A DNA stretch of 62,035 nt from an uncultured Clostridia bacterium (lineage in GTDB: Bacteria > Bacillota > Clostridia > Oscillospirales > Oscillospiraceae), in NCBI GenBank assembly GCA_946411475.1, contig CAMKED010000001.1, forward strand, positions 1 to 62,035. The letters are read 5' to 3'. Positions 3,083-58,644 of this stretch are shown in pieces. Every line of letters starts with the position of its first letter. Position 1 is the stretch's first letter. Both the position numbers and the translations under genes were made by a program. The notes beneath the pieces are model-generated. The model was not told where the DNA came from. It was given only the letters and a program-made list of their open reading frames with translations, and did not search any database.

Positions 3083-3135
3083 GTTATGATCACCTACATT
3101 GTAATTTCAATTTGCATTCGTGACCGCCGGAACGG

Positions 3136-8317: not shown

Positions 8318-8392
8318 TTCAATTCCTCATTTCTGTGCGTGGGAGAGAACACAATATAAAATCACGCGTACATGCGTTCAAAACGTGCGGGA

Positions 8393-14384: not shown

Positions 14385-15261
14385 AAAGCTGGGCTACCTC
14401 TTCAAAGAGGGCATTCGCAATATGTTCACCCACGGCTTCATGTCCTTTGCGGCCGTGTGCGTTACGGTGGCCTGCCTGGTCATCATCGGCGGTTTTTCGC
14501 TGATCATCTACAATCTGAGCCTGTTCGTCTCCGATATGGAGCAGCAGAACCGGGTTCTGGTATACATTGATGAAACCTACGACACCGGATCGGCCAAATC
14601 CGTCGGCTCCAAGATCAATCTGGTGGACAACGTCCGCGAGGCGGTCTTTATGTCCCGGGAGGAAGCAGTGGATCGCTTCATCAAGGATCAGGGCGCAGAC
14701 GAAACCTTTGCCGGCATCAACCCCTCGGACCTGCGTGACCGCTTTATCGTCACCCTGGAGGACAACTCCAAAATGGCCGAGACCGTGGAACAGCTCCGCA
14801 AGATCGAGGGCGTGGCACGAATTGCCGACCGGCCTGAGATCGCCGAGGGCATTACCACCATCCAGCGCGTTCTGAACATTGTCTCCATCGGTATTATCGT
14901 GGTGCTGCTGGTGGTCTCCCTGTTTATGATCTCCAATACGATCAAGCTTGCCATGTACGACCGGCGCGACGAGATCGCCATCATGAAGATGATCGGCGCG
15001 ACCAACCGCTTTATCCGCCTCCCTTACTTTGTGGAAGGCTTCCTGATCGGCGTCATTTCCGCCGCGGCTGCTTTCTTTACCGAGTGGGGGCTCTACGATC
15101 TGCTTGCGTCCCGCATCACCCAGATGCAGAGCATGCAGCTTCTCAGCATTGTTCCGTTCCAGGAAGTGTTTATGCCCATGGTCGTGACCTTCGGAGCGGC
15201 CGGCCTGTTCGTCGGCATGTTCGGCTCCGTCATGTCCATCCGCAAGTTCCTTGACGTCTGA
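14371..15261 (+). CDS. ftsX: Cell division permease-like protein FtsX
   Basis: The start [18 protein letters not shown] overlaps the ftsE end. The protein has 4 TM segments and a large extracellular loop. Confidence 0.88.
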   Translation: MKRIRKLGYLFKEGIRNMFTHGFMSFAAVCVTVACLVIIGGFSLIIYNLSLFVSDMEQQNRVLVYIDETYDTGSAKSVGSKINLVDNVREAVFMSREEAVDRFIKDQGADETFAGINPSDLRDRFIVTLEDNSKMAETVEQLRKIEGVARIADRPEIAEGITTIQRVLNIVSIGIIVVLLVVSLFMISNTIKLAMYDRRDEIAIMKMIGATNRFIRLPYFVEGFLIGVISAAAAFFTEWGLYDLLASRITQMQSMQLLSIVPFQEVFMPMVVTFGAAGLFVGMFGSVMSIRKFLDV

Positions 15262-15289
15262 TCCAAACGAAAAGGGGGGTATGCTAATC

Positions 15290-16624
15290 ATGTACAAGCA
15301 TCGCAGATTGATCGTTTCGGTGATCGCCGGACTGCTTGCGCTGCTGCTTGTCGGAGGCCTGATTCTCAACGCTGTCGCAGAAAGCTCCGGCGCCATCAAA
15401 TCCCGCATCGAATCCCTGAAGCGGGAGGAGGAAGAGATCGCCGCCGAGAAGAAAGCCGCCGCAGAGCAGCGGGAATCCAACGAATCGGAGATCCTGGACC
15501 TGGTGGAGAAAAAGAACCAGATCGATCAGCAGATCAAGCTGACCCAGGAATCCATCGAAACGAAGAATGAACTGATCCGGGAGTACAGCCTCCTGATCGC
15601 AGAAAAGCAGAACGAGCTCGGCGACGCCGTGCAGGGACGCGACAGCCTGAACGAGCAATACCGCGTCCGCATCCGCGCCATGGAAGAGAACGGAAAGCTG
15701 ACCTATTGGTCGATTCTGTTCAAGGCAAACAGCTTTGCAGATCTTCTGGACCGCGTGGAGATGATCAACGAGATTGCCAGCTCCGACGCCAGAATGATCA
15801 ACCAGCTCCAGGCAGCCGCGCAGCAAATTGAAATTGCCCGCCAGGAGCTTGCCGCCGAAAAGGTGGAGATGGAAGAGGCGAAGGAGTCCCTGGCTGCCGA
15901 GCAGCAGGAACTGGAACAACAGCGCGCTGAGGCCGACGGCGTAATGGCAGAGCTGATGGCGGACCATGAAGAGTATGCCGCGGCGGAAAGCAAGTACGCG
16001 GCCGAGCAGGAAGCGCTGCTGGCCAAGATCGCCTCGGAGGAGACGAAGTATCAGCAGGCAGTGGCTGCGGAGGAACAGGCCCGCCGTGAGGCGGAGGCTG
16101 CCGCCAGGGCCCGCGAACAGGCTGCCAAGGAACGGGAGAAAGAGGCGTCCGGCGGAGGCAGCTCCTCCGGCGGAAGCAGCTCCGGCGGCGGCAGCTCCTA
16201 CAACGGCGCGGTCAGCAGCTACGGCTTCAGTTGGCCCTGCACCGCACGGGCGCTGACCTGCCCGTTCGGACCGCGCGTTCACCCCATTACCGGCGTTTAC
16301 AGCAATCACAGCGGCGTGGACATCGGCGCCAGCTATGGCTCTCCCATCTATGCCTGCGCCTCCGGCACCGTGACCACCGCCACCTACGGCACGGCCTACG
16401 GCTACTACGTGACGATCAACCACGGCAACGGTTTCTCTACGCTTTACGGCCATATGATCCGCTACACGGTCAGCTCGGGCGATTACGTGACCCGCGGCGA
16501 GATCATCGGCTACGTGGGCAGCACCGGCTGGTCCACCGGCCCGCATCTGCATCTGACCATGTACCACAACGGGACGCTGGTCAACCCGCTGGACTATCTG
16601 CCTGCAGGCGGATACTTCGTATAA
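15290..16624 (+). CDS. Coiled-coil M23 (LytM-type) peptidoglycan metalloendopeptidase
   Basis: A signal/TM segment is followed by a long coiled coil, a GGSSS linker and an intact M23 domain (HSGVDIGASYGSPIYA...GSTGWSTGPHLHL). The start is chosen at 15290; 15281 is an alternative. Confidence 0.85.
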   Translation: MYKHRRLIVSVIAGLLALLLVGGLILNAVAESSGAIKSRIESLKREEEEIAAEKKAAAEQRESNESEILDLVEKKNQIDQQIKLTQESIETKNELIREYSLLIAEKQNELGDAVQGRDSLNEQYRVRIRAMEENGKLTYWSILFKANSFADLLDRVEMINEIASSDARMINQLQAAAQQIEIARQELAAEKVEMEEAKESLAAEQQELEQQRAEADGVMAELMADHEEYAAAESKYAAEQEALLAKIASEETKYQQAVAAEEQARREAEAAARAREQAAKEREKEASGGGSSSGGSSSGGGSSYNGAVSSYGFSWPCTARALTCPFGPRVHPITGVYSNHSGVDIGASYGSPIYACASGTVTTATYGTAYGYYVTINHGNGFSTLYGHMIRYTVSSGDYVTRGEIIGYVGSTGWSTGPHLHLTMYHNGTLVNPLDYLPAGGYFV

Positions 16625-16652
16625 TCTGAGAGAACAGAAAGAAAGGCATGCA

Positions 16653-17864
16653 ATGAAATCACATCGTCATTTGATCGTTTCCGCTGCCGCCGTGATTCTG
16701 GCTTTGCTGATGACGGGCAGCATGTGCCTGTCCGCCTTCGCGGAGAGCTCCAGTACCATCAAGGCGCGTATTGACGAGCTGAAGCGGCAGGAGGCGGCAA
16801 TCTCCGAGCAGAAGAAGGAAGCGCGCGAACAGCGTGAGGCCAACGAATCGGAGATCCTCGACCTCGTGGATCAAAAGAACGAGATCGATCAGCAGTTGAT
16901 GCTGACGCACAGCGCCATTGAAACGAAAAACGAGCTGATCCGCGAATACAATCTGCTGATTGCGGAAAAACAGAACGAGCTTGGCGACGCCATCTCGGCG
17001 CGCGATGCGCTCAACGAGCAGTATCGCCAGCGCATTCGCGCCATGGAAGAGAACGGGAAGCTGTCCTATTGGTCTATTCTCTTCCGGGCGAGCAGCTTTT
17101 CGGACCTGCTGGACCGCGTGGAGATGATCAATGAGATCGCCCGCGCCGACTCCAAAATGATCGAGCGGCTCCAGGAATCCGCCCAGCAGATCGAGGCGGT
17201 CCGGCAGGAGCTGGCCGCCGAGAAGGTGGAGATGGAGGAGGCCAAAGAGGCCCTGGCCGCCGAGGAAGCGGAAATGGAAACGCAGCGCGTCGAGGCGGAC
17301 AACCTGATGGCGGAGCTGATGGAAGACCACGAGAAGTATGCCGAGATTGAGAGCAAGTTTGAGGAAGAGCGCGAGGCTCTGCTGAAGCAGATCGCCGCCG
17401 AGCAGACCAAATACAAACAGGCGGTCGCTGCCGAATCTTCCGCCGGCTCCGTCAGCAGCGCAGGTCTGAGCTGGCCCTGTTCCGCCCGCGCGATCACCAG
17501 CCCGTTCGGTACCCGCCGCGACCCCTTCACCGGGGTTACCACAACCCACAGCGGCATTGACATCGGTGCAAGCTATGGCTCTCCCATCTACGCCTGCGCC
17601 TCCGGCACAGTGACCGCCGCCACCTATAACTCGATCTTTGGGTATCACGTGCGGATCAACCACGGCAACGGCTTCCTCACGCTCTACGGCCACATGATCC
17701 GTTACACGGTTCACGAAGGCCAGCAGGTGCAGCGCGGCGAGCTCATCGGTTACGTCGGCAGCACCGGCAAGTCTACGGCGCCGCATCTGCATCTGACGCT
17801 GTACTGCAACGGCTCCCTGGTCAATCCCCTGAACTATCTTCCGTCCGGCTGGTATTACGCCTGA
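16653..17864 (+). CDS. Coiled-coil M23 peptidoglycan metalloendopeptidase, tandem paralog
   Basis: 403 aa, collinear with the preceding gene (ESSSTIKARIDELKRQE...HSGIDIGASYGSPIYA...GSTGKSTAPHLHL). Confidence 0.85.
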   Translation: MKSHRHLIVSAAAVILALLMTGSMCLSAFAESSSTIKARIDELKRQEAAISEQKKEAREQREANESEILDLVDQKNEIDQQLMLTHSAIETKNELIREYNLLIAEKQNELGDAISARDALNEQYRQRIRAMEENGKLSYWSILFRASSFSDLLDRVEMINEIARADSKMIERLQESAQQIEAVRQELAAEKVEMEEAKEALAAEEAEMETQRVEADNLMAELMEDHEKYAEIESKFEEEREALLKQIAAEQTKYKQAVAAESSAGSVSSAGLSWPCSARAITSPFGTRRDPFTGVTTTHSGIDIGASYGSPIYACASGTVTAATYNSIFGYHVRINHGNGFLTLYGHMIRYTVHEGQQVQRGELIGYVGSTGKSTAPHLHLTLYCNGSLVNPLNYLPSGWYYA

Positions 17865-20799: not shown

Positions 20800-21014
20800 G
20801 TAGGGGCGCACAGTGTGCGCCACGGGAGGAAGTGCGTTATCGAGACACCACCTCATCCGTCATCGGGCTTCCGTGAGACGCCCGCTGCCACCAGCGCTTA
20901 ATGTTGCCAGTTGCGTCAGCATAGCTGCCGCACTGGCGATGAAATCCACAACAGTCCCCCGGACTGTTGTGTCCCCTCAAGGGGAAGGCTTTGTAGGGGC
21001 GCACAGTGTGCGCC
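20800..21014. repeat. Mosaic block between greA and lysS
   Basis: GTAGGGGCGCACAGTGTGCGCC occurs at 20800 and again at 20993 (direct). ccacctcatccgtcatcgggcttccgtgagacgcccgctgccacc lies at 20848-20892, the hairpin CACAACAGTCCcccGGACTGTTGTG at 20947-20971, and CCCCTCAAGGGGAAGG at 20972-20989. Confidence 0.9.
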
Positions 21015-24904: not shown

Positions 24905-26782
24905 TCACGGAAGCTCCAGCGCTTCCTTCAAAAATGCGGCAATATCGGCCAAGGGGCTGTTCTTGTATTTTTGACGGAGTGGGTTTTTCAGGCCTGCGAT
25001 TGTCACCGCGTCCTGGAAGAAATACCGACCGTCGGCGCAGTCCAGCAGACGGTAGAAGGCGGCAACGCCTGCGCCGGGTTTCCCGGCCTCTTTTTGGCAG
25101 ATCTGCAGGCTCGCAACCGCAGAGATGGGATAGCTGATGACGTAGCCGGGGTTATCAAAAAAGTAGAGATCCCGGACCCAACTCATCGGCCGGATCGCGT
25201 CGGCATAGGGGACCCGGTGCCCGTCGTTCAGACAGCACTGCTCGTAGATTTCGTCCAGCTTCTCCAGCGTGAGCGTTTCCGGATCCTCGGAATAGACCCG
25301 CAGTTCAAAGTCGGCGTAAGTGCAGCGCTCTATGATCCGCTCCAGCAGAAGCTCCGCCAGCGACATGCGGAGGGCTTCAGCCTTTTCCTCCTCCGGCAGC
25401 GCCGCGTTGGCCAGAGCCAGGTATACCATCGCCTGAGAAAAGGTTTCCGTTGTTTCTGTGTCGTCATACATCCCGTAATGCACAAAGCAATCGACAAAGT
25501 GACCGAATTCGTGGGATATGGAGCCGTAGACGTCCCGGTACTTCAAGGGATTGATGAAGATGATGGGCGCCTCATATTCTGTCAGATAGGTCACAAAGCT
25601 GTAATCCCGCTTTTCCGGCGTCGGGCTGAGATCGTACAGCTCGTAGGCAGACAGGAAGCGGCAGGCGTCCCAAATGGGACCGCCCATTTGCTCCGCCGCG
25701 GTAGAAAGCAGGGCGATGGGGTCCTCATTCAGCGTGTCGGAATACCCCAGATGGAAATTCGGATCCCGCTCATACAGCGCGTTCGCCACCGGGACGAGAT
25801 TGTGGCGAACGTCGGAGAGAAAGAGCTCTGCGTCTTCCGGGGTATAATCTCTGCCGAAGCTGTCATAAATGAAGTCAATGTAGTTTTCATAGCCCGAAGC
25901 CGCGGCAAGCTGCTGACGCACGCGAACGATCTCCAGATAGAGCGCGCCGATTTCGTCGTGGTACTGCTCTATGTAGGCGCTGTACGCAGCGTCTCGAATC
26001 TCGACGGAATCAGATTTCTTCCACTCGTTGAGCAGCTTCGTTTCGCCCGCATAGGTCACGGAGGGGGCGCTGATCAGCGCGTGGTATTGCTCCAGCAGCT
26101 TGCTTTCCTGCTGCTGAAGCTCCAGATATTCGGCGCCGCCGTCCGGATTGTAATTTGCATAGTAGTCGAAGTAGAAACCGTCATATTCCCGTTCCAGTAT
26201 GGAGCGGCAGGGAGAGGCGGCGAAGGCTTGCATCAGTGCGGCATACTTATCCGACAGGAGATTGCTCTGTGCTACACAGTAGTTGTATTCCACCTCATAG
26301 TAACTGTCGGTGGTATTCAAAGCGTTGCGGAAGGCGGCGAGGGTATACATGGAGTCAAACTGCATCTGACGGTATTCCAGGTCGAAATAAGCGGCAAGCA
26401 GGGCGTCTGTGTCGAGGCTCGTCTTTGCCCGCTCGATCAGCGCGTCATAGTCCGCGATCAACTGTTCGGCGTCCTGGTGAACGTAGGGCATCTCGGCCAG
26501 CCGCAGCATGGAGATTTTTTCTCCTCTGTGTTCGGGACCGTAATCCCAGTTGGGCCGATAACGAACCAGACCTTCGTCGTTTTCCGGCGCAGCGGTCTCT
26601 GCTGCGGCCGTTGCGGCTTCCGCCGTGCCTGTTTCGGCGGTGCTGCCTGGCTGAGAACTGCTTTCCTCTGCGACTCGCGCAGCAGTGGTGCTTGTGCCGG
26701 CGGGACTGTCGGCGCAGCCGGCAAAGAGACTGAGCAGCAGCACGGCTGCCAGCAGCAGGGCGGTGATTCGGCTTTGTTTCAT
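24905..26782 (-). CDS. Secreted lipoprotein zinc metallopeptidase (HEFGH motif, PepF/M3-like)
   Basis: 625 aa with a lipobox LLSLFAGC, a Ser/Thr/Ala-rich linker and the HExxH motif ISHEFGHFVDCF. Confidence 0.6.
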   Translation of the reverse strand: MKQSRITALLLAAVLLLSLFAGCADSPAGTSTTAARVAEESSSQPGSTAETGTAEAATAAAETAAPENDEGLVRYRPNWDYGPEHRGEKISMLRLAEMPYVHQDAEQLIADYDALIERAKTSLDTDALLAAYFDLEYRQMQFDSMYTLAAFRNALNTTDSYYEVEYNYCVAQSNLLSDKYAALMQAFAASPCRSILEREYDGFYFDYYANYNPDGGAEYLELQQQESKLLEQYHALISAPSVTYAGETKLLNEWKKSDSVEIRDAAYSAYIEQYHDEIGALYLEIVRVRQQLAAASGYENYIDFIYDSFGRDYTPEDAELFLSDVRHNLVPVANALYERDPNFHLGYSDTLNEDPIALLSTAAEQMGGPIWDACRFLSAYELYDLSPTPEKRDYSFVTYLTEYEAPIIFINPLKYRDVYGSISHEFGHFVDCFVHYGMYDDTETTETFSQAMVYLALANAALPEEEKAEALRMSLAELLLERIIERCTYADFELRVYSEDPETLTLEKLDEIYEQCCLNDGHRVPYADAIRPMSWVRDLYFFDNPGYVISYPISAVASLQICQKEAGKPGAGVAAFYRLLDCADGRYFFQDAVTIAGLKNPLRQKYKNSPLADIAAFLKEALELP

Positions 26783-26856
26783 GTTGATCGTTTCCTTTCC
26801 GTTTATGAATTACGGCAGCTCCGTGCAGAATTGCGGAAAGACCCCGGTTCTCGGCG

Positions 26857-28662
26857 TCAGTTCATATGGAAGGCGTCTTTCAGGAATGCTGCGGTCTTTT
26901 CCAGGGTAGCTTCCTCAAATGGACTGTCCAGGCCAACCTCTTCAAGAACCGCGGCGAATTTCTTTCCGTGTGTGCGATTCAGCAGACGGCAGAAGGCGTC
27001 GACGCCTGCGCCGGGATTCTCCGCTTCCAGCCGGCAGATCTGCAAAGCAGTGACCGCAGAGTCGGAATAGCTGATGACGTAGCCGGGGTAAGCAAAGAAA
27101 TGCAGGTAGGCGCTCCAATAGTTGCTTTTAAAACGCACGCCGGAAACACCGGAAATGCCGAAATCCTTCATACACTGCCCGAATATGGCGTCGAGATGTT
27201 CCACGGTCAGCTCCTCCGGCGCAAGCGCGTAAACCTGCAGCTCAAAGTCCGCATAGGCACCCTCCTGAAGGATGGCGTAAACCAGTAGATCCGACACAGT
27301 CGCTCGGAGGTTCGAAGCCCGCGCATCATCCGAGAACGGATCGGCATAGGCAAACGCCAGATACTGCATCGCCTGAGAATAGGTCTCTCCGGTTTCATGG
27401 TCCCCGATACTGCCGTAATTGTAATAATAATCGGTAAAATGTCCGAATTCATGGAACAGCGTGATGACCAGATCTTTTGAAGAGGGATCTACGAAAAGAA
27501 AGGGCGCCTCATAGTTCCCGAGATAGCTTGTATAGCCGGTGCCCATTTTGTTCCGCGAGTAAGAGACGTCATACAGCTCGTGGCCGGACATGAACCGGAA
27601 GGCCTCCCAAATGGGGCCGCCCATCCGTTCCGCGGCAGCGGAAAGGTAATCCACAGACTTTGACTCATCCCAGTAGGAATAGTACGAATACGGACCGGCT
27701 ATGTTGGGGTTTTTCATCAGCGGAGCAAGGAAGTCTTTGACGCAGGCCAGATACTCACGCGCCTGAGCGGGTGTATAATCCCGCTTGAAGCTGCAGGCAT
27801 AGCTGTAATCCATGTAGTTCTCATAGCCCTTTGCTTCGGCAATCTTTTGGCGGAGCTTGACAAGCTCGATAAAAATCTGACCGGAGGCCTCGTGGTTCTT
27901 CTCAATATCCTGGGGGTTGGTATAATCGGCTGTCGACGCCAGCGCATAGTATTGGGCAAGCAGATCGTTTTCCTGCTTCAGCAGGTCGAGGTAGCTCTCG
28001 TCTCCGACGTTGAAATTGTCATAGTCCAGGAAGAATCCTTCGCCGAAATACGCCTTTTCCAGCTCGTCCCGGCAGGGAGAGGCGGCGAAGGCGGCATAGA
28101 GCGCGTTTTCCTTTTCCTCTGCAATATCTCCTTGCTCCTCGCAGTAATCGTATTCATCGGCAAAATAGCTGTCATTCATGTCCATGCTATAATGGAAGTA
28201 CGCCAGGGAACACATCGTTGTGAAGTTGCTGATTTGCACGGCAATCGGGTAATAGTCGGTCAAAAGCGCTTCCGCGTCGCTGCACCCGGGGACCTTCTCC
28301 GTGAGCGCCTCAAGATCGGCAATCAGCTTATCCGCGTCCGGGCGGATGTACTCCATCTCGGAAAGCTTCGGGATCGTCAGGGGCTCCTCCGGCAGGAATC
28401 TCAGATCCCCGCCATTCTGCATTCGAACCGGAATTTCAAAGTCGAACGTGGATTCTTCGGTCTCCCGGACGGTAGCTTCCTGCGAGACGGTCGAAGAATC
28501 CGCCGGGACTGTTTCGGAGGAGCCGGCGGGCTGAGAACTGCTTTTTTCTGTGATTCGCGCAGCGGTGGTGCTTGTGCCGGCGGGAGCGTCCGCGCAGCCT
28601 GCAAAGAGACTGAGCAGGAGGATTACGGACAGTAGCAGGGCAAAAATTCGTACGGGTTTCAT
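26857..28662 (-). CDS. Secreted lipoprotein zinc metallopeptidase, tandem paralog
   Basis: 601 aa with the same lipobox (LLSLFAGC) and the motif LFHEFGHFTDYY. Confidence 0.6.
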   Translation of the reverse strand: MKPVRIFALLLSVILLLSLFAGCADAPAGTSTTAARITEKSSSQPAGSSETVPADSSTVSQEATVRETEESTFDFEIPVRMQNGGDLRFLPEEPLTIPKLSEMEYIRPDADKLIADLEALTEKVPGCSDAEALLTDYYPIAVQISNFTTMCSLAYFHYSMDMNDSYFADEYDYCEEQGDIAEEKENALYAAFAASPCRDELEKAYFGEGFFLDYDNFNVGDESYLDLLKQENDLLAQYYALASTADYTNPQDIEKNHEASGQIFIELVKLRQKIAEAKGYENYMDYSYACSFKRDYTPAQAREYLACVKDFLAPLMKNPNIAGPYSYYSYWDESKSVDYLSAAAERMGGPIWEAFRFMSGHELYDVSYSRNKMGTGYTSYLGNYEAPFLFVDPSSKDLVITLFHEFGHFTDYYYNYGSIGDHETGETYSQAMQYLAFAYADPFSDDARASNLRATVSDLLVYAILQEGAYADFELQVYALAPEELTVEHLDAIFGQCMKDFGISGVSGVRFKSNYWSAYLHFFAYPGYVISYSDSAVTALQICRLEAENPGAGVDAFCRLLNRTHGKKFAAVLEEVGLDSPFEEATLEKTAAFLKDAFHMN

Positions 28663-30809: not shown

Positions 30810-32141
30810 ATGAAAACCAATACTGCGGTCAAAGGTCTCATTGATTTTCTGAGCAAGAGCCCCTCTGCGTTCCATGCAGTCGAGAATTTGCGGCAAATGC
30901 TGCTGGCGGACGGTTTTGCTGAGCTGCCCGAGAGCCGTCGTTGGGACGTTAAGCCCGGCGGTCGCTATTTCACCACCCGCAACGGCTCCAGCATCCTGGC
31001 CTTCCGCGTGGGCACCGAGCTCTCCGAGCCCTGCTTCACTCTGACTGCCTCTCATTCCGATTCTCCCTGCTTCAAGATCAAGGAGAACGCTGAGCTGCGC
31101 GTCCGCGACAAGTACGTCCAGCTCAATACCGAGGGCTACGGCGGCATGATCTGCTCCACCTGGATGGACCGGCCGCTCGGCGTGGCGGGCCGCGTCCTGG
31201 TGCGGGTCAAGACGGAGGCAGGGGAGCGCTACGAGACCCGGCTTCTCGACTTTGACCGCGATCTGGTCCTGATCCCCAATATGGCCATCCACATGAACCG
31301 CAAGATCAACGACGGCTATACCTTCAACAGGCAGATCGACATGGTCCCGCTCTTCGGCTCCGGCAAGCTGAAAAAGGGTGCGTTCAAGGCCATGATTGCC
31401 AAGGAACTCGGCGTGGCCGAGGCGGATATCCTGGGCTCCGATCTCTTCCTGTATAACCGCATGGCGCCCACCGTCTGGGGTGCGGAAAATGAATACGTCT
31501 CCGCCGGCCGTCTGGACGATCTGGAATGCGCCTACGGCACGTTGCGCGGCTTCCTGCAGGGCAAGAACGAGAAGACCATCCAGGTCTGGTGCTGCTTTGA
31601 CAACGAAGAAGTCGGCTCCGGCACCAAGCAGGGCGCAGATTCCACCATGCTGGAGGACGTGCTGCGCCGCATTGCCAACGGCCTGGGTTTCGACGATGAG
31701 GACTACCGCTGCATGACCGCCCGGAGCTTCATGCTCTCCTGCGACAATGCCCATGCGGTCCACCCCAACCACCCGGAGAAGACCGACGCCACCAACTGCA
31801 CGTTCATGAACGAGGGCATCGTAGTCAAGGCCCATGCCGGACAGAAGTACACCTCCGACGCAGTCTCCGTGGCCCTGTTCCGCGGCGTTTGCGAGAAGGC
31901 CGGCGTGCCGGTCCAGTTCTTTGCCAACCGTTCCGACGAGAACGGCGGCTCTACGCTGGGCAATATCGCGATGGCGCACGTGTCCATGAATACCGTCGAT
32001 CTCGGTCTGCCCCAGCTTGCCATGCACAGCAGCTACGAGACCGCGGGCGTGCAGGATCTGAAATACCTCGAAACTGCCAGCGCGGCCTTCTACGGCACGC
32101 ACTTTACGGCAGACGGCAAGGGCGGCTTCGCGGCTGAATGA
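30810..32141 (+). CDS. M18 family aminopeptidase
   Basis: 443 aa. The translation shows ...LIDFLSKSPSAFHAVENL..., ...TASHSDSPCFKIKE... and ...DNEEVGS... Confidence 0.88.
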   Translation: MKTNTAVKGLIDFLSKSPSAFHAVENLRQMLLADGFAELPESRRWDVKPGGRYFTTRNGSSILAFRVGTELSEPCFTLTASHSDSPCFKIKENAELRVRDKYVQLNTEGYGGMICSTWMDRPLGVAGRVLVRVKTEAGERYETRLLDFDRDLVLIPNMAIHMNRKINDGYTFNRQIDMVPLFGSGKLKKGAFKAMIAKELGVAEADILGSDLFLYNRMAPTVWGAENEYVSAGRLDDLECAYGTLRGFLQGKNEKTIQVWCCFDNEEVGSGTKQGADSTMLEDVLRRIANGLGFDDEDYRCMTARSFMLSCDNAHAVHPNHPEKTDATNCTFMNEGIVVKAHAGQKYTSDAVSVALFRGVCEKAGVPVQFFANRSDENGGSTLGNIAMAHVSMNTVDLGLPQLAMHSSYETAGVQDLKYLETASAAFYGTHFTADGKGGFAAE

Positions 32142-32323
32142 AGTATTTGCTTGCGCAAATATGAAGTATGCTTCGCATTTGAAGTGTGCTCCGCACATGA
32201 AGTATGGCTGCGCCATATCTCTCGCGCGTCCAAATATGCGCGGCAGCGCATACTTCATATCCGCGCCGGCGGGTACTTCATATTCCGCAGGAATACTTCA
32301 TATCGCCGCCAGGCGATACTTCA
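32139..32323. repeat. Inverted doublet of GAAGTAT mini-hairpin modules (4 forward + 4 reverse units)
   Basis: TGAAGTAT/TGAAGTGT occurs at 32139, 32162, 32180 and 32198, and ATACTTCA/GTACTTCA at 32250, 32273, 32293 and 32316. The first unit contains the stop TGA of the M18 gene. Confidence 0.9.
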
Positions 32324-32344
32324 TCCAACCACAGGAGGCTGCCG

Positions 32345-33145
32345 ATGTTCCAAAAGCTTACTGATACGTCATATGCCGTCTCCGCCTGGTCCGGCGGGAC
32401 GACGACGCAGCTTGCAATTTTTCCGCCGGAGGCAAAGTATGCCGACCGGGACTTCCTTTGGCGGGTCAGCTCTGCCACGGTGGATCTGGAGGAATCGGAC
32501 TTCACCGCCCTGCCGGACTATGACCGCCTGATCGCCACCCTGCAGGGGGAGATCGTACTGACCCACAACGGCGGCGCGCCGATAAAGCTTCACCCTTTCG
32601 AGGTCCACGCCTTTTCCGGTGCGGACGCGACGCACAGCGTCGGCTGCTGCACGGACTTCAACCTGATGCTCCGCCGCGGCCGCGCCGCCGGAACCATGGA
32701 GGCTTTGCGTCTGACGGACGCACCGACCCGCCTCTCCGTAGGGACAAGCATTGCTTGTCCGAAAACCTCCCCTGCAAGCAGGGGAGGAGGAGCGCCGCAG
32801 CGCGGCGCGGAGGAGGGGTGCCTCCCGCCCGAGGTACCAACTGCCCCCGCTGTAGGGACAAGCATTGCTTGTCCGCCCAATGCCTCTGAAGAGACGCTGC
32901 TTCTCTACTGCGCAGAGGGTTCCTGCACCGCAACCGTAGGGGCGGTTGAAACCTCCCCTGCAAGCAGGGGAGGTGGAGCGCCGCAGCGCGGCGCGGAGGA
33001 GGGGTGTTGCCCGCAACCCGCAGCGGCTATCCCCGTCTCCCTCCGCGCAGGCGAAACCCTCCTGCTGACTGCCCCCGCAGCGCTGACCTTCACCGGCGAG
33101 GCCACCCTCATGCTCTGCCGGATCCGGACTGACAACAAAACGTAA
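32345..33145 (+). CDS. HutD/Ves family protein carrying two in-frame repeat-derived insertions
   Basis: The ATG at 32345 follows caggagg. It shows HutD-like sequence (SAWSGGTTTQLAIFPPEAKYADRDFLWRVSSATVDLEESDFTALPDYDRLIATLQGE). At 266 aa it is longer than the ~185 aa usual for the family. The extra ~80 aa map exactly onto repeat units at 32736-33010. Confidence 0.7.
   Translation: MFQKLTDTSYAVSAWSGGTTTQLAIFPPEAKYADRDFLWRVSSATVDLEESDFTALPDYDRLIATLQGEIVLTHNGGAPIKLHPFEVHAFSGADATHSVGCCTDFNLMLRRGRAAGTMEALRLTDAPTRLSVGTSIACPKTSPASRGGGAPQRGAEEGCLPPEVPTAPAVGTSIACPPNASEETLLLYCAEGSCTATVGAVETSPASRGGGAPQRGAEEGCCPQPAAAIPVSLRAGETLLLTAPAALTFTGEATLMLCRIRTDNKT
32736..33010. repeat. Intragenic repeat units inside the hutD-like ORF
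   Basis: GTAGGGACAAGCATTGCTTGTCC occurs at 32738 and 32852. CCTCCCCTGCAAGCAGGGGAGG + GAGCGCCGCAGCGCGGCGCGGAGGAGGGGTG occurs at 32767-32820 and 32952-33006. A GTAGGGGCGG head lies at 32936. Confidence 0.9.
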
Positions 33146-33146
33146 T

Positions 33147-33195
33147 CATAATAATATGGGGACAAACCTGTGCGGTTTGTCCCCATATTATTATG
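33147..33195. terminator. Long perfect hairpin between convergent genes (bidirectional terminator candidate)
   Basis: CATAATAATATGGGGACAAACC-tgtgc-GGTTTGTCCCCATATTATTATG forms a 22-bp perfect stem. It marks the left border of a lower-GC segment. Confidence 0.7.
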
Positions 33196-33958
33196 GCTGA
33201 GATATTTTTTCAAGACACGCAAGCATTTTTCCGGCACAACGAAGATCGACTTCTGCGTAATAATCTGCCTCGGCATCTGTGAACGCACTTTCATCCATGG
33301 CATCAAACTTTGCTGTCATTTCTATTTCTTTTTGTACTAAGGCAGTGTACGTTGCAAGCTGGGAAGTATCACTTGCGTCATAGCTTTCCATGAATGCGCA
33401 GTAAGAATCGATAAACTCCTCATAACTGTCAATAGCTTCTTTGACTTCGGGGCGTATGATACTTTGATCTATACCGGTATCAGTCAAAGTTGCCTTTTCC
33501 GTTTCCTGCTCTTTTTCTGCGGTTGTAGATTCTGGCACGCTTGTTGCTGCAGTTGTTTTGCTTCCGGTGCTTTCCCTTGGAACTGCGCGAGTTTCGGCTG
33601 TGCGAGATTCCGTTGCTACAACCGGCGTAGTTCTATCGTTAGAAGATGAACGGGAAGTTGAATTGGAGCCAGAACCGGAGCCTCTGGATTTGACGGCCGC
33701 AACGATGATAATGACGAGAACGATAATGAACCATGGCTTCTGGGTGATCGATTTCTTCGTTTTTTCTGCTTTCTTTGAACGATTCAGTTCAACGGGCTTC
33801 GAGAAAATACTTGCTTTCGAGGGTTGACCCTGCGCATAGTTAGCGCCAGTTTGCTGCTGGCCTTGCGCGGTGTTGGCAGACTGATAGATTTGCGCTCCAC
33901 ATTTCGGACAGAATTTCGTGCCGTCTTGGACGGCGGTTCTGCAATTTGGACAGTACAT
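33191..33958 (-). CDS. Zinc-ribbon membrane protein, unknown function
   Basis: 255 aa. The N-terminus has CPNC...CPKC, followed by a Q-rich region, one TM segment (WFIIVLVIIIVAAV), an S/T-rich linker and a helical C-terminal domain. Confidence 0.6.
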   Translation of the reverse strand: MYCPNCRTAVQDGTKFCPKCGAQIYQSANTAQGQQQTGANYAQGQPSKASIFSKPVELNRSKKAEKTKKSITQKPWFIIVLVIIIVAAVKSRGSGSGSNSTSRSSSNDRTTPVVATESRTAETRAVPRESTGSKTTAATSVPESTTAEKEQETEKATLTDTGIDQSIIRPEVKEAIDSYEEFIDSYCAFMESYDASDTSQLATYTALVQKEIEMTAKFDAMDESAFTDAEADYYAEVDLRCAGKMLACLEKISQP

Positions 33959-34008
33959 TTTTAACGATCCCTTCTATACTCTTTTTATAAGTGCTTTTCC
34001 TGCACGTT

Positions 34009-34491
34009 TTAAACGTAGTACGGGTTTGGTTTTGAGAGAATCTGAAAGATGTCAATGATCCAACCGAATCCAAAAAGACCGAATGTAAACAGATACAGGA
34101 TTCCGAGATTGGAATTGCCCTCATAGAACTTGTGCGCACCGAAGTAACCCAGAAATACACATAACAGCAGAGCGACCCATTTGTCCTTTGGCGTTCCGGT
34201 ATTGACGGATACGTTGACTTGCTGGCTGACGGGCGTCTGATTCGCCGGAGGCTGATAGAAAACGAAGGTTGGCTGCTGCGCTTTCAGCTCCTGAACTTGT
34301 CTTCCACATTTCGGACAAACGACACAATCTGCGTTAATTGCTTCACCGCAATAAATACAGAATTTTTGATTGTCCTTTCGTGTTTGTCTGGTATCGTCAT
34401 AATACCTTGTTCCGCAGCTTTGACAGACGAGCATGCCGTTTTGCTGAACGATTTCCCGGCTTCCGCACATTTGACAAACGATAGCTTTCAT
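34009..34491 (-). CDS. Double zinc-ribbon plus TM2 domain protein
   Basis: 160 aa. Two CxxC...CxxC pairs are followed by a TM2 domain (KWVALLLCVFLGYFGAHKFYEGN...GILYLFTFGLFGFGWIIDIF). Confidence 0.7.
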   Translation of the reverse strand: MKAIVCQMCGSREIVQQNGMLVCQSCGTRYYDDTRQTRKDNQKFCIYCGEAINADCVVCPKCGRQVQELKAQQPTFVFYQPPANQTPVSQQVNVSVNTGTPKDKWVALLLCVFLGYFGAHKFYEGNSNLGILYLFTFGLFGFGWIIDIFQILSKPNPYYV

Positions 34492-34620
34492 CTTTTCCTC
34501 CTTTACTCACAAATCACTTCTAAAACGGACAAAGCGGAGTGCAGCTTTTTTTCTCAGAAAAGACAAAAAATGTGCAGCCCCAATCGAAGCTGCACACGAA
34601 AAACGCATACCCCGATTGCT

Positions 34621-34722
34621 GCTACACAAATCGATGACCCAACAAAAGGCGCCAAAGTGGAGATGCGCTTTTACCATAAGTAAAAATGCACCTTTTGTTG
34701 GAAAATATTCGATTTGTGTAGC
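34621..34722. other. 102-nt nested inverted repeat (structured RNA or MITE-like element)
   Basis: GCTACACAAATCGA (34621-34634) pairs with TCGATTTGTGTAGC (34709-34722). CCAACAAAAGG (34639-34649) pairs with CCTTTTGTTGG (34691-34701). It lies in the AT-rich divergent spacer between the TM2 and M28 genes. Confidence 0.6.
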
Positions 34723-34879
34723 ACCTTCATTATATCATAGGAGGTCTTTCTGTTCAATCCTTTTTTCAAAAAATTGGACCGATTTTGAATACAGAAGGTT
34801 TTTTTCAGCTTCCCTCTTCCATTTTAGAAAACTTATGATACAATAAGAACAGATAATAAAAAAGAGAGGAGCACCAATC

Positions 34880-48072: not shown

Positions 48073-48094
48073 TGTTTACGCTCCTGTGAAGGAA

Positions 48095-48387
48095 TGAAGT
48101 ATTGCCTGGAGGCAATATGAAGTATTCCTTCGGAATATGAAGGATCTCTTTTGGAGAGATATGAAGTATGTGCGACGCGCATATCTGGAAGCAAGGGAAG
48201 GTGTCTCGTGGAAAGTCGTAGGGATGAGCAGTGCTCGTCCGGCATTCGTACCCAGTCGGATCGCCCCGAGAGCGGACAAGCAGTGCTTGTCCCTACATCC
48301 GGAAAGATATGGCGCAGCTATACTTCATAAGCAAAGTGTCTTCATACGGCGAAGCCGTACTTCACATTTGCGTCAGCAAATACTTCA
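48095..48387. repeat. Composite palindrome: 4 GAAGTAT units, a GTAGGGA REPIN-like doublet, then 4 inverted units
   Basis: TGAAGTAT/TGAAGGAT occurs at 48095, 48118, 48138 and 48162. GTAGGGATGAGCAGTGCTCGTCC (48218-48240) and the inverted GGACAAGCAGTGCTTGTCCCTAC (48274-48296) sit in the centre. ATACTTCA-type units follow at 48320, 48338 (degenerate), 48357 and 48380. Confidence 0.9.
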
Positions 48388-48391
48388 TTTC

Positions 48392-50197
<1,806 letters not shown>

Positions 50198-50243
50198 ATC
50201 ATAATCCCTCAAAACAGGCATTCTATCCCTTATAATCCACCAC

Positions 50244-50272
50244 ATTATAGCAGACAAAGCCCGGTTTGTAAA
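50244..50272 (-). promoter_or_regulatory. Putative lepA promoter
   Basis: On the minus strand: TTTACA (50272-50267), 17 nt, TATAAT (50249-50244). Confidence 0.55.
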
Positions 50273-50328
50273 GGCCAAAAAAGCTGTTGCGGCGCGCTTC
50301 GGCAGCGGCGCGGGACCCGCTTCCCCGC

Positions 50329-50506
50329 CTGTCATTCTGAACGAAGTGAAGAATCCGTACCCCCGCGGCAAGCCGCAGGCGTAAATGAATCCTGAAAAAC
50401 GAAAAACTGTAAAATGAAGAATGGGGGTATTCTCAAATTGCCATTTGAGAATGAATTGAAATAGAGACGAGGGACGCGGATTCTTCGCGTTGCTCAGAAT
50501 GACAGG
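50329..50506. repeat. MITE-like element bounded by inverted GTCATTCTGA...GAAGAATCCG units
   Basis: The left end is cctgtcattctgaacgaagtgaagaatccg (50329-50358). The right end is cggattcttcgcgttgctcagaatgacagg (50477-50506). The interior holds a GC hairpin CCGCGGCAAGCCGCAGG and the AT hairpin ATTCTCAAATtgccATTTGAGAAT (50429-50452). Confidence 0.8.
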
Positions 50507-50554
50507 CACTGAAACGCCCGTGGGTTTTATTATTTTTCAAAAATGAAAAAGCTC

Positions 50555-53369: not shown

Positions 53370-54173
53370 TCAGATATGATCTACCTTGTTCATGCTCCCC
53401 ATCCGATAGCCTCCCAGGTCGACTGTGACCCAGCGGTAGCCCAGGCCCCGCAGAGCTTCGTTGACTGCGGCGGCCAGGGCCGGATCCCGGAGCCGGGCCA
53501 TTCCGGACTCGTCCAGCTCGAGCCGGGCCAGATCGCCGTGATCCCGCACCCGGAGCTGCCGGAAGCCCTGCGCTGCGAGCCAGTTCTCCGCGGCCTCCAC
53601 CCGGGCCAGGCCCGCGGCGGAGATGGGCCGGCCGGTCACAAAACGGGTCGCCAGACAGGCCATCGCGGGCTTGTCCCAGGTGGACAGGCCCAGTTCCTTA
53701 GAGATGGCGCGAATCTCCGATTTGGTCAGCTCCGCTTCCAGCAGGGGAGAGCGGACGCCCAGCTCCCGGATGGCTCGCATGCCGGGGCGGTAGTCGCCTA
53801 AGTCGTCCAGATTGGAGCCCTCGGCCACCCATTGCAGGCCGAGGCTCCGGGCCGTCTCTGCGATTTGCGTAAAGATGGCCTTTTTGCACAGATAGCAGCG
53901 CTCCGGCGGGTTGTCCGCTACGTCGGGGATGGACAGCGTGTCCACGTCCGGCAGAATATGCCGGACGCCCTCGGCCGCACAGAACGCGGCGGCAGCCTCC
54001 AGCTCCCGCGCCGGAACGAAGCGGGAGCGCACCGTCACCGCCGCGGCCCGCTCGCCCAGCGCTTCCCGGGCCGCCCGCAGCAGCAGCGTGGAATCCACGC
54101 CGCCCGAAAAGGCCACGGCCACGGAGCCCAGCTCCCGCAGCAGCCCCAGCAGCCGATCATACCCGCCGCTCAT
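53370..54173 (-). CDS. larE: ATP-dependent sacrificial sulfur transferase LarE
   Basis: The start at 54173 makes an ATGA overlap with the larC stop. The translation ...VAVAFSGGVDSTLLL... shows the PP-loop SGGxDS, with a conserved Cys context (...CYLCKK...). Confidence 0.85.
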   Translation of the reverse strand: MSGGYDRLLGLLRELGSVAVAFSGGVDSTLLLRAAREALGERAAAVTVRSRFVPARELEAAAAFCAAEGVRHILPDVDTLSIPDVADNPPERCYLCKKAIFTQIAETARSLGLQWVAEGSNLDDLGDYRPGMRAIRELGVRSPLLEAELTKSEIRAISKELGLSTWDKPAMACLATRFVTGRPISAAGLARVEAAENWLAAQGFRQLRVRDHGDLARLELDESGMARLRDPALAAAVNEALRGLGYRWVTVDLGGYRMGSMNKVDHI

Positions 54174-55507
54174 GCTTCTGCATGTAGGGACAAGCATTGC
54201 TTGTCCGTCTGAATTGCTTGCCGTACCGTGTCAATGGAAATCCCCTGTTCCAGTGCAATACGCGCCAGGTCATCATATTCGTATTTGACCCGTTCCACGC
54301 CGAACCCGGAGGCAATCTTTCGCCGCACGGGGCCGAACGCGGTCTCTACGGTGTCCACCCGCCGCTCCAACACGGCCCGGCGCAGGACGGCTTCCCGCAC
54401 CCCTAAGGTCGTGGTGTGCCGGAAGAGCAGGGAGATCATGCTGTCCCGATCTGCGTGTTTACATAACACACAAAACATCGTTCCGGGACGGCCTTTCTTC
54501 ATCCCAATGGCCTCGGTCCAAACGTCCAGCGCCCCGGCCTCCAACAGCCGCTCGACCGCGAAGCCGACGGCCTCGCCCGTCATGTCGTCGAGATTGCAGC
54601 GGAGCTCCAGCACCTCGTCGGCCTCCTGCTCCGCCGTTTCGCCCAGCAGGGCGCGGACGCAGTTGGCCGCAGGGAAGTCCTTCCGGCCCATGCCGTAGCC
54701 GATGGCTGCGGTCCGCATCACGGGCATTGCCCCGAACTTGTTGACATAATATTTTAACAAGGCCGCGCCCGTCGGCGTGCAGAGCTCGCCCTGGATCGCG
54801 CCGCCGTAGATCGGCACGCCCCGCAGCAGCTCCGCCGTAGCGGGGGCTGGGACGGGCATCAGCCCGTGCGCGCAGCGAACCTGCCCGCAGCCGACGTGGA
54901 TGGGGGAGCAGAGGATCTGTGCCGGGGCCAGCTCGTGGATCAGCAGGCAGACGGCCGCCACGTCGGCCACCGCGTCCAGGGAGCCCACCTCATGGAAGTG
55001 GATCTCCTCCACCGGGACGCCGTGCACCTTGCTCTCAGCCTCAGCCAGCAGCCCGTATACCGCCAGCACGTCAGCCTTGACCGCCTCGGGCAGGTCAAGA
55101 TGATCCTGCACCAGATGCGCGATCCCATGCATCCCGGTATGGGGATGATGATGGTGCTCCCCGTCCCCTGGTGACTGTTGACTGGTGACTGGCGACTCAT
55201 GATGCTCATGCTCGTGCGCCTCGGGAAAGCCTTCCCCCTGGGGGGAAGGTGTCGGCGCAGCCGACGGATGAGGGGGTGTCTCGTCGTGGTGATGCACATG
55301 CTCCTCCGCGCCGTCCACGGTCACGCGCATGTGCGTGCCGGAAATGCCGCACTTCACGGAATTCTCGGCCCGGTATTCCACCCCGGGGATGCCGAGCGCG
55401 TTGAGCCGGGCCAAAAACTCCGCCTTGTCGGGCAGCAGCTCGAGCAGGGCCGCCGTGAGCATGTCGCCCGCGGCGCCCATAGAGCAGTCAAAATAGAGTG
55501 TTTTCAT
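54170..55507 (-). CDS. larC: Nickel insertion protein LarC (nickel-pincer cofactor biosynthesis)
   Basis: 445 aa. MKTLYFDCSMGAAGDMLTAALLEL... is the DUF111 N-terminus. A His-rich central region carries a repeat-derived insert. Confidence 0.85.
   Translation of the reverse strand: MKTLYFDCSMGAAGDMLTAALLELLPDKAEFLARLNALGIPGVEYRAENSVKCGISGTHMRVTVDGAEEHVHHHDETPPHPSAAPTPSPQGEGFPEAHEHEHHESPVTSQQSPGDGEHHHHPHTGMHGIAHLVQDHLDLPEAVKADVLAVYGLLAEAESKVHGVPVEEIHFHEVGSLDAVADVAAVCLLIHELAPAQILCSPIHVGCGQVRCAHGLMPVPAPATAELLRGVPIYGGAIQGELCTPTGAALLKYYVNKFGAMPVMRTAAIGYGMGRKDFPAANCVRALLGETAEQEADEVLELRCNLDDMTGEAVGFAVERLLEAGALDVWTEAIGMKKGRPGTMFCVLCKHADRDSMISLLFRHTTTLGVREAVLRRAVLERRVDTVETAFGPVRRKIASGFGVERVKYEYDDLARIALEQGISIDTVRQAIQTDKQCLSLHAEA
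54184..54206. repeat. GTAGGGAC palindrome inside the last codons of larC
   Basis: GTAGGGACAAGCATTGCTTGTCC on the plus strand is read on the minus strand as ...TDKQCLSLHAEA*, ending at the larC/larE ATGA junction. Confidence 0.9.
55170..55277. repeat. Intragenic GTGAC stutter and CCTTCCCC composite inside larC
   Basis: ggtgactgttgactggtgactggcgac spans 55170-55196. GCCTTCCCCCTGGGGGGAAGG + TGTCGGCGCAGCCGAC + GGATGAGGGGG spans 55230-55277. The block translates on the minus strand as PPHPSAAPTPSPQGEGF...SPVTSQQSP. Confidence 0.9.
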
Positions 55508-58014: not shown

Positions 58015-58644
58015 CTACCTTCTATTATCTATATCCTGTGGTTTTTTGTCAATAGGAGATTTCATGTTTTTTGAAATTTTATACCATAAACAGGCGAGCC
58101 AGTAGCCCATGATCGCCCCGGCGGTGTTCAGGATCAGATCGTCCAGCTCCGAGACCCCGGAGCCCAGAACGAATTGCATCGTCTCAATGCCCAGCGAGAG
58201 CAGAAAGCCCCACAGCATTGCAACTGTAGCGCCGGCAATCTGCCGGCCATTCTTCCGTAAGGGACGGGTTTCCCGGCCCGCCGCCGCAGCTCCCTGTAGC
58301 GGCGCACACCGGTGCGCCACGGGGAACGGTGCATTGTCGGTACGCCCCTCATCCGTCAGCGGGCTTGCGTGAGACGCCCGCTGCCACCTTCCCCCTCGGG
58401 GGAAGGCATTCCGCAGCCGCACCAGCACGCCCACCGGCATGAACCAAACCAGATTTCCCACAAACAGATAGGTGAAATACCGCCAGTATTCGATCCGAAT
58501 CAGCTTTGCGTAATAGGCAAAGGCGTCCCATTCGATCCGCCCGGAGAAGAGCCCGTGCCGAAAGCAGCCGTTCCGGAATACAGTCAGACGCAGCAGGGCG
58601 GCAAGCCAGAGAACGGCAAGCACCCGGATTACAGTTTTTTTCAT
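58015..58644 (-). CDS. VanZ family protein carrying a ~61-codon in-frame repeat-derived insertion
   Basis: Its ends are VanZ-like (MKKTVIRVLAVLWLAALLRLTVF... and ...LLSLGIETMQFVLGSGVSELDDLILNTAGAIMGY). The central 58225-58407 is made entirely of repeat units. Confidence 0.65.
   Translation of the reverse strand: MKKTVIRVLAVLWLAALLRLTVFRNGCFRHGLFSGRIEWDAFAYYAKLIRIEYWRYFTYLFVGNLVWFMPVGVLVRLRNAFPRGGRWQRASHASPLTDEGRTDNAPFPVAHRCAPLQGAAAAGRETRPLRKNGRQIAGATVAMLWGFLLSLGIETMQFVLGSGVSELDDLILNTAGAIMGYWLACLWYKISKNMKSPIDKKPQDIDNRR
58225..58407. repeat. Intragenic block of four repeat units inside the vanZ-like ORF
   Basis: The units are GTAGCGCCGGCAATCTGCCGGCC (58225-58247), GTAAGGGACGGGTTTCCCGGCCC (58257-58279) and GTAGCGGCGCACACcgGTGCGCC (58296-58318). 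The fourth is CCCCTCATCC + GTCAGCGGGCttgcgtgagacGCCCGCTGC + CACCTTCCCCCTCGGGGGAAGGC (58345-58407). Confidence 0.9.

Follow-up and report, generated by a model that had tools for sequence, protein, structure and literature searches.

A HutD/Ves-family gene of an uncultured rumen lineage of Oscillospiraceae (~59% G+C) has very probably been colonised by the palindromic repeats of its own genome and has stayed functional, with the repeats translated as tolerated in-frame loops. The gene lies in a stretch of 62,035 nucleotides (nt), here called the window, which covers positions 1 to 62,035 of contig CAMKED010000001.1. The repeats are repetitive extragenic palindromes (REPs) tagged with GTAG and a companion module made of two hairpins, and they occupy two places in the C-terminal half of the gene. 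An earlier note, made from the letters of the DNA, had proposed that repeat elements are inserted in frame at these two places and had likened them to the Rickettsia palindromic elements (RPEs). Those of its proposed checks that were run all favoured this reading. The features of the gene are as follows.

32345..33145, plus strand: HutD/Ves-family bicupin gene, 266 codons and a stop (Pfam PF05962)
32738..32875, plus strand: insert 1, exactly 46 codons (VGTSIACPKTSPASRGGGAPQRGAEEGCLPPEVPTAPAVGTSIACP), placed at the turn that follows core position 133, without a counterpart in short orthologues
32738..32760, plus strand: REP copy a of insert 1, a GTAG-tagged hairpin (GTAG, then GGACAAGC ATT GCTTGTCC), read as VGTSIACP
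32766..32820, plus strand: two-hairpin module of insert 1, read as TSPASRGGGAPQRGAEEG, with hairpin 1 at 32766-32787, hairpin 2 at 32792-32808 and the tail GGAGGAGGGGTG at 32809-32820
32817..32838, plus strand: third hairpin of insert 1 (GGTGCCTC CCGCCC GAGGTACC), predicted in the fold
32852..32874, plus strand: REP copy b of insert 1, a GTAG-tagged hairpin and a direct repeat of copy a at a spacing of 114 nt
32876..32934, plus strand: native segment between the inserts (PNASEETLLLYCAEGSCTAT), forming beta-hairpin strands; the M module, conserved across orthologues
about 32935..33015, plus strand: insert 2, ~27 codons (VGAVETSPASRGGGAPQRGAEEGCCPQ), placed at the turn that follows core position 153, without a counterpart in short orthologues
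32936, 32952-32973, 32978-32994 and 32995-33006, plus strand: parts of insert 2, namely a degenerate GTAG start, hairpin 1, hairpin 2 and the tail, together with a short GTTGC/GCAAC hairpin
33016..33127, plus strand: native C-terminal strands 3' of both inserts, matched by the C-module profile in the same frame

The open reading frame (ORF) is preceded by an AGGAGG ribosome-binding site at 32333-32338. No stop interrupts it across the two repeat blocks, and its translation gives the peptides quoted in the earlier note. The family assignment made in that note is also correct, as Pfam PF05962 matches the protein at 6.8e-33 (114.8 bits against a cut-off of 25) and HutD structures stand on top of the Foldseek results. 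The Pfam match is restricted to amino acids (aa) 9-132, which correspond to profile positions 3-128 of 181, because the inserts hide the C-terminal third of the protein. With the NCBIfam Ves model, whose cut-off is 292 bits, the protein scores only 31.7 bits; therefore, it is not the equivalog of E. coli Ves.

The two blocks are real, but their boundaries had to be moved. The first had been placed at 32736-32880, which is 145 nt and not a multiple of three; the correct intervals are 32738-32875 and approximately 32935-33015, the latter with an uncertainty of ~2 codons. Likewise, the extra length is due to insertion as proposed, although it amounts to ~73 codons on a core of ~193 aa and not to ~80 codons on a core of 186 aa. 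Block 1 does consist of the repeat units that had been named, but not only of them, as it also holds the third hairpin (32817-32838), whose stem is perfect in strain L082, and a 13-nt linker. Multiples of three are seen throughout, in the two inserts (46 and 27 codons) and in the 114-nt unit flanked by REP copies a and b (38 codons), whose copy number is variable. A 66-nt direct repeat joins the blocks (32763-32828 versus 32949-33014, 94% identical). The two palindrome copies at the ends of block 1 pair in the predicted fold, so that insert 1 becomes a REP-closed multi-hairpin structure (z = -5.5 with RNA parameters and -6.1 with DNA parameters relative to shuffles); the fold of insert 2 has z = -3.9. 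The translated peptides are rich in Gly, Pro, Ser, and Arg. Neither block belongs to an Rfam family, the FourU and microRNA rows being at chance level. Searches with the 46-aa insert peptide returned no candidate from an index of 5.8 billion proteins and, with phmmer, 0 matches at E <= 0.001 among 1.84 billion representatives; short low-complexity peptides are beyond the reach of both tools, so these nulls are uninformative on the spread of the element.

The repeat units named in the earlier note are present at the places given there, with a near-zero expectation in shuffled sequence, and they recur at 5-6 other sites of the window, most of them intergenic. GTAGGGACAAGCATTGCTTGTCC is found at 32738 and 32852, identically at 13617 and 54184, with 2 mismatches at 46699, and with 1 mismatch on the minus strand at 48274. 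CCTCCCCTGCAAGCAGGGGAGG has its two in-gene copies at 32766 and 32952 and three more at 12141, 12231, and 46759, while GAGCGCCGCAGCGCGGCGC occurs in the window at 32790 and 32976 only. The matches expected in shuffles are 0.00, 0.00, and 0.12, respectively. The 23-mer REP consists of GTAG followed by a perfect 8-bp stem with a 3-nt loop. By definition (PMC3733652), a GTAG-tagged REP has this tetranucleotide at one of its ends and then a short palindrome, with a stem of 5-13 bp and a short loop. Hairpins in which GTAG precedes a perfect stem of 7 bp or more number 21 in the window and represent several subfamilies, versus 0.8 in a control of 50 shuffles (maximum 3), and 16 of the 21 lie outside rough gene calls or at call edges. 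In other words, the 23-mer units fit the definition in their tag, their short palindrome, and their dispersed, mostly extragenic distribution. Some REPs form inverted doublets, at 13617(+)/13642(-), 2 nt apart, and at 53173(+)/53229(-); a third pair, 48219/48274, combines one imperfect and one good copy. A tandem array at 11103-11323 contains 6.5 copies, 97% matching, of a 34-nt unit made of a GTAG REP (GTAGTGCCGGCAATCTGCCGGC) and a 12-nt spacer; it stands just 5' of a pseudouridine synthase gene and overlaps the called start of that gene.

The companion module also belongs to a dispersed family. Its architecture is hairpin 1 (CCTCCCCTGC-WW-GCAGGGGAGG), hairpin 2, and a GGAGGGGTG tail. Hairpin 2 is variable in sequence, with at least 12 different stems, and its pairing is almost always perfect. 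The fullest form is enclosed by GTAG + GGGGCGGC on one side and GCCGCCC on the other, which gives a three-way structure. Intergenic copies with this architecture are at 12141, 12231, and 46759, and others occur in metagenome loci. The intergenic region 12078-12268 is a perfect 90-nt tandem duplication (2.1 copies, 100% identical) with one reverse-oriented module per copy. The exact HutD-type module had 0 matches in the JGI metagenome contigs, and a looser hairpin-1 pattern matched 120 loci there. About two-thirds of these loci were set aside as an unrelated soil/peat repeat that shares the hairpin (CACCCCACCCCAAC + hairpin). This CACCCCACCCCAAC + CCTCCCCTGCAAGCAGGGGAGG family occurs in high-G+C soil and peat contigs (L084, L088, and many of L099-L163) without the second hairpin and the tail, and it shares the one hairpin either by convergence or through distant relationship.

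Evidence that the blocks are insertions comes from orthologues. A search of protein collections gave 1624 HutD relatives, of which the best 120, ranging from 172 to 340 aa, were used. The core is conserved in their alignment, and every large length difference is at two places. Orthologues of 186-196 aa lack both blocks and have no residues homologous to them: LxLxxxPxxL directly joins ETLLLYC at the first site, and EGxCxx directly joins xLxxGExLL at the second. The earlier note had named homologous residues in repeat-free relatives as grounds against the insertion reading, and these orthologues offer no such grounds. Internal additions of at least 15 aa among 109 homologues occur only after core position 133 (31 sequences) and core position 153 (60 sequences), where the window protein has 46 and 27 extra residues.

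The predicted structures place both sites in loops, as the earlier note had anticipated. In the AlphaFold model of the window protein, the core has a pLDDT (predicted local distance difference test) above 90, including the strands that follow the inserts. Insert 1 (aa 137-180, pLDDT <50) is a loop between beta strands, and insert 2 lies in another such loop (aa 200-228, pLDDT ~60). The native strand between them, E184-199, is predicted with a pLDDT above 90. The best Foldseek matches in the PDB are the HutD structures 1YLL and 5V00/5FCC (E 3e-12 to 8.5e-11; target TM-scores 0.77-0.82), and matches in the PDB exist at the level of sequence too. The model of an insert-free orthologue, P0118, has a pLDDT of 96 and the same strands, with three-residue turns at 133-135 and 151-153 where the window protein has its loops. 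Judging from these models, both inserts therefore sit at tight beta-turns, which would be positions compatible with the fold.

The inserts are polymorphic among strains, a check that the earlier note had named. Three close relatives (L081, L082, and L083) were aligned to the window at the DNA level. L082, which comes from an independent ENA assembly, matches the window essentially base for base in both blocks. Exactly 114 nt are missing from L081, corresponding to one REP, the two-hairpin module, and the linker, and the 24-nt REP direct repeat stands at the junction, so that this is a clean indel. Site 1 of L083 has the module and no REPs. The more distant L001 carries the 114-nt unit twice, resulting in three REPs and two modules. 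The copy number of the unit among relatives is thus 0, 1, or 2. Other species have different repeats at both turns, for example heptamer runs read as GSGSKDQGS, and L008 has the general variant of the module. These comparisons suggest that the arrays expand through nested insertion and are altered by unequal recombination or by slippage, in steps that are always multiples of three among the surviving alleles.

Members of the module family are read in frame in other genes as well. Among 40 copies in metagenome loci, only that of L114 is in a HutD gene that matches the N module in full, L194 having a weak partial match. The DUF2344 genes of L116 and L152 carry two multi-repeat in-frame inserts. 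In a MoaC-MOSC protein of L153, the module forms the linker, in frame, and in a DUF3102-like protein of L183, the module and a CHSERSE-type element are read on the opposite strand. Coding on both sides of the repeat in L116, L152, L153, and L183 is supported by Pfam and by codon-position G+C. By the latter measure, the spanning ORFs of the GC-rich loci L092, L098, L101, L118, L133, L138, and L149 are probably spurious, and they were rejected.

Are the inserts more than tolerated? They could be kept as RNA or DNA hairpins that act in translation, mRNA stability, or recombination, conversion from the REPs of the genome could keep them homogeneous, or the loops could have gained a function in the protein, for instance as Cys-containing surface loops or length-variable loops. 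The site-1 REP of 23 nt is identical in the window, L001, L003, and L005, although these four genomes differ from one another at 18-35% of the synonymous third positions in the neighbouring N module (26-35% except for L001/L003). When pairs are pooled, the REP has differences at 11 of its 129 third positions and the N module at 558 of 1913; as the pairs lack independence, the Fisher value is only indicative. Furthermore, the stem CCTCCCCTGC/GCAGGGGAGG is replaced by CCTCCCCCGC/GCGGGGGAGG in L008 through compensatory or wobble changes, and a G-T pair is seen in L001. The blocks also fold far better than shuffles, and a common frame, read as TSPACRGGG, is used by HutD, DUF2344, and MoaC-MOSC. 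However, the type and length of the insert peptides vary freely among species, and many orthologues have no inserts. Both orientations are read in frame: TSPACRGGG as an exclusive frame had to be rejected, as L183 reads the opposite strand. Finally, recent re-insertion or gene conversion without any function would explain the nucleotide conservation equally well. The REP identity and the stem compensation fit hairpin selection, conversion from the genomic REP pool, and repeated re-insertion alike, and a role beyond tolerance is given only an outside chance here.

Several observations weigh against the reading of the gene as functional and colonised by tolerated repeats. The module is open in six of six frames and block 1 in five of six (one REP forward frame has a TAG), so the absence of stops in a single sequence is not evidence by itself. 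Three HutD entries, P0068, P0103, and P0114, are frameshifted or truncated and lose their C-terminal homology after a repeat, and in P0009 the beta strand that separates the two sites is missing; P0009 looks like the result of recombination between the two in-gene module copies or of assembly collapse. These damaged entries suggest that inserts carry a cost or that short-read assemblies collapse there. The HutD-type hairpin 2 (GCGCCGC..GCGGCGC) is found only inside HutD genes, which speaks against repeated independent hits; both blocks may descend from one old insertion. The module copies at sites 1 and 2 may therefore be a single acquisition duplicated within the gene, and the site-2 copy of L008 is a separate one. 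Among the ORFs enclosed by inverted REP pairs in ~1.28 Mb of sequence, judged by eye, none is convincing as a transposase, including the REP-associated tyrosine transposases (RAYTs), and the comparison of filled and empty sites (window versus L081) shows no visible target-site duplication. Lastly, translation of the full-length product is inferred from conservation only; it would yield junction peptides such as LSVGTSIACPK and TVGAVETSPASR.

Cheap openness and the frameshifted relatives would suit a decaying pseudogene or an untranslated remnant that stays open by chance through GC-rich repeats. So would an antisense ORF of 215 aa, which likewise spans the insert region, and the restriction of the Pfam match to the N-terminal two-thirds. 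Evidence on this point comes from loci that were taken as one genome per species and fetched by N-terminal motifs only, so that there was no bias towards intact C-termini. Profile hidden Markov models of N, M, and C modules were built from insert-free proteins and run on three-frame translations. The three modules are in one frame without an internal stop in every scorable locus. About a dozen insert-bearing species-level loci, including L001-L008, L010, L013, and L014, keep the frame, with the C module in frame 3' of both inserts in all of them. Between the window and its insert-bearing relatives, the N module has a dN/dS of 0.11-0.22 at species-level loci and the C module one of 0.25-0.63; L081 and L082 are near-identical strains that differ too little for dN/dS to be judged. 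The median pN/pS is 0.29 in insert-bearing versus 0.42 in insert-free lineages for the N module and 0.56 versus 0.69 for the C module. The insert-bearing lineages thus show no sign of relaxed selection, and these ratios argue for purifying selection on both sides of the inserts. The divisibility by three of the inserts and of the 114-nt unit, the confident AlphaFold core with its strands after the inserts, and the good ribosome-binding site upstream also argue against decay. The earlier note had named an untranslated pseudogene as the condition under which its reading would fall; such a state is very improbable given the retained frame and the dN/dS values below 1.

That the blocks are an artefact, either a repeat-induced chimera or repeats collapsed or expanded in a metagenome assembly, can be dismissed almost entirely. 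It would suit the evident origin of the sequence from an uncultured organism's metagenome-derived genome, the two repeat copies of 58 nt at a distance of 186 nt, and P0009, which resembles a collapse between repeat copies. However, the independent assembly L082 has the same structure base for base in both blocks, and variants exist at the same two sites in other ENA, NCBI, and JGI assemblies.

How did the repeats enter a functional HutD gene? In the favoured explanation, extragenic repeats of the genome, GTAG REPs and the companion module, would enter two tight beta-turns in the C-terminal half of the protein. Only stop-free insertions of a multiple of three would survive, with selection purging out-of-frame and stop-containing events. 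The inserts would then be translated as probably disordered loops, presumably neutral, that leave the bicupin core intact. The array would behave like an intergenic REP cluster that receives nested insertions of other repeat families, and its 114-nt unit would expand and contract by recombination or slippage between the direct REP copies. The original insertion presumably occurred by REP mobilisation through a Y1 transposase of the RAYT type or by hairpin-driven template switching; with neither a transposase nor a target-site duplication found, the insertion mechanism is a conjecture.

Two other genes of the window contain repeats in frame.

58015..58644, minus strand: VanZ-family gene with ~50 repeat-derived codons in one loop (58226-58388), including two GTAG REPs
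54170..55507, minus strand: LarC (Ni_insertion) gene with repeats at 55228-55279 and 54184-54206

The repeat stretch of the VanZ-family gene is 83% identical to the intergenic sequence 20800-20892, and the Pfam match spreads 174 residues over 121 profile positions. VanZ orthologues range from 151 to 239 aa, and all of this variation is in one loop with REP peptides that include the tandem ADGKVPSLQAG/ADKQCLSLQAG. VanZ is thus a second hot-spot gene. In LarC, the His-rich region contains a two-hairpin element (55228-55279) read as TPPHPSAAPTPSPQGEGF, which belongs to the family CCTTCCCC..GGGGAAGG that also has intergenic copies at 36109, 38908, and 60986. LarC ends inside a GTAG REP, which its final 12 codons traverse (..DKQCLSLHAEA*). 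With HutD, VanZ, and LarC, 3 of ~56 genes of the window have in-frame repeats.

Two further ORFs of the window cross repeats at their 5' side. The called LepA ORF (48392..50509, minus strand) is prolonged by ~100 codons upstream of the GTPase domain through a CHSERSE-type repeat, and its annotated start is probably wrong because the call extends upstream through the repeat. Copies of the element concerned (GATTCTTCG..CTCAGAATGACAG), which is read as CHSERSE... in other genomes, are at 50464-50513 and 3938-3984. The ThiI ORF listed with a start at 61103 likewise crosses a repeat, and its true start is MNEIFLLKLG.

A bolder proposal is that REPs inside genes are not dead passengers. Particular turns, namely HutD sites 1 and 2, the VanZ loop, and DUF2344, would be standing landing pads at which in-frame units are continually added, duplicated, and deleted, and in-gene repeats would keep their exact nucleotide identity over a synonymous divergence of ~0.5-0.8 by structure-level selection or by conversion from the genomic pool. 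This proposal is tentative, and on the whole it is unlikely to hold in full. If true, it would mean that RPE-like colonisation affects 3 of ~56 genes, a per-gene frequency at least that of Rickettsia, and that the genome has a built-in source of variation in loop length.

The comparison with RPEs (RPE-1 etc.; Ogata et al. 2000, 2002; summarised in PMC10969869) is sound as a functional analogy. In both cases, palindromes of dispersed families are in frame in unrelated housekeeping genes and are translated as extra, fold-compatible segments, and their presence or absence differs between relatives. The units here, GTAG-tagged REP-type hairpins of an Oscillospiraceae genome, are treated as an analogue and not as members of the RPE families. 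The host here is a free-living rumen Firmicute, whereas Rickettsia is an AT-rich obligate intracellular alphaproteobacterium; short hairpins of the GTAG REP type and a modular element of two hairpins make up the inserts here, whereas RPEs are ~100-150 bp; and several families are stacked here at the same two turns, with copy-number variation of a 114-nt unit.

Equally among the closest parallels are the intragenic GTAG/CGTC REPs, which give rise to "REP-decorated proteins" (Di Nocera et al. 2013, PMC3733652). The REPs of that survey share with those described here the GTAG tag, a perfect 7-10-bp stem, and a 2-4-nt loop. They are mostly extragenic, inverted dimers are frequent, and a minority are intragenic, as single, dimeric, or grouped units that encode 20-82 aa. 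Some genes have two sites, and once the same site is used in two species (recB of Xanthomonas). In contrast, Firmicutes and Clostridia are unmentioned in that survey, and the REPs described here are joined by hairpin modules of a non-REP kind, occupy the same turns in ~12 species, expand and contract at the strain level, and have no RAYT in the ~1.28 Mb examined by eye. REPIN/RAYT systems (Bertels and Rainey 2011, PMC3116915; Bertels et al. 2017, PMC5581495) are resembled by the inverted REP doublets of the window (13617/13642 and 53173/53229). However, REPINs are essentially extragenic, the HutD copies are in direct and not inverted orientation, and no RAYT gene was seen in the sequence examined. 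Group 1 RAYTs have been reported from Clostridia too (PMC5581495), and a cognate transposase is therefore plausible. In-frame MITEs (miniature transposable elements with inverted repeats), such as the intragenic enterobacterial repetitive intergenic consensus (ERIC), QMITE1 of Coxiella burnetii, and the Anabaena MITEs (PMC10969869, PMC5896051), are also small non-autonomous repeats with open frames that form translational fusions to host genes. MITEs derived from insertion sequences differ in having terminal inverted repeats and target-site duplications; none of the latter are visible here, and the units here are much shorter.

In-frame REPs outside Rickettsia are thus already known (PMC3733652). 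What looks new is the rumen Oscillospiraceae host, the stacking of several families at the same turns in ~12 species, the in-frame copy-number variation of the 114-nt unit, and the nucleotide conservation of an in-gene REP. In-frame palindromes were long seen as a peculiarity of Rickettsia and were later catalogued mainly in Proteobacteria and Opitutus terrae; the process now extends to abundant uncultured Firmicutes of the gut and rumen. For annotation, it matters that profile models drop the C-terminal third of such proteins and that gene callers extend or split ORFs over such repeats. For protein evolution, the orthologue series is a natural experiment on how well beta-turns tolerate disordered sequence. 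For repeat biology, the in-gene REP is more conserved than the adjoining synonymous sites, and complete genomes would permit a test of homogenisation versus selection.

The surroundings of the HutD gene do not form a hut operon: an M18 aminopeptidase gene is upstream and, in relatives, an M28 peptidase gene is immediately downstream, and therefore a role in histidine use is not implied. Just 5' of the gene, 32136-32347 is an intergenic array of ATGAAGTAT...ATACTTCAT hairpins, and similar intergenic arrays are at 3130-3214 and 48081-48192. Their matches to the Rfam motif Gut-1 RNA stay below threshold (RF01706; 30.9 and 29.9 bits versus a gathering score of 50). On the 3' side, homology with strain L082 stops at 33127. 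A 1.7-kb segment of the window (33128-34827) replaces 45 nt of that strain between the HutD and M28 peptidase genes, with 95.8% identity upstream of the segment and 99.2% downstream. The segment contains two minus-strand genes (zinc-ribbon/DUF6591 and zinc-ribbon/TM2) with a lower third-position G+C, and a 39-nt inverted repeat (33130-33212) lies at its left junction. It alters the last codons of HutD, which read RIRTDNKT* in the window versus RITAL* in L082. Elsewhere in the window, self-comparison detects adjacent paralogous gene pairs at 6806-9937, 15251-17864, and 24905-28662, with ~120-650 nt of nucleotide similarity.

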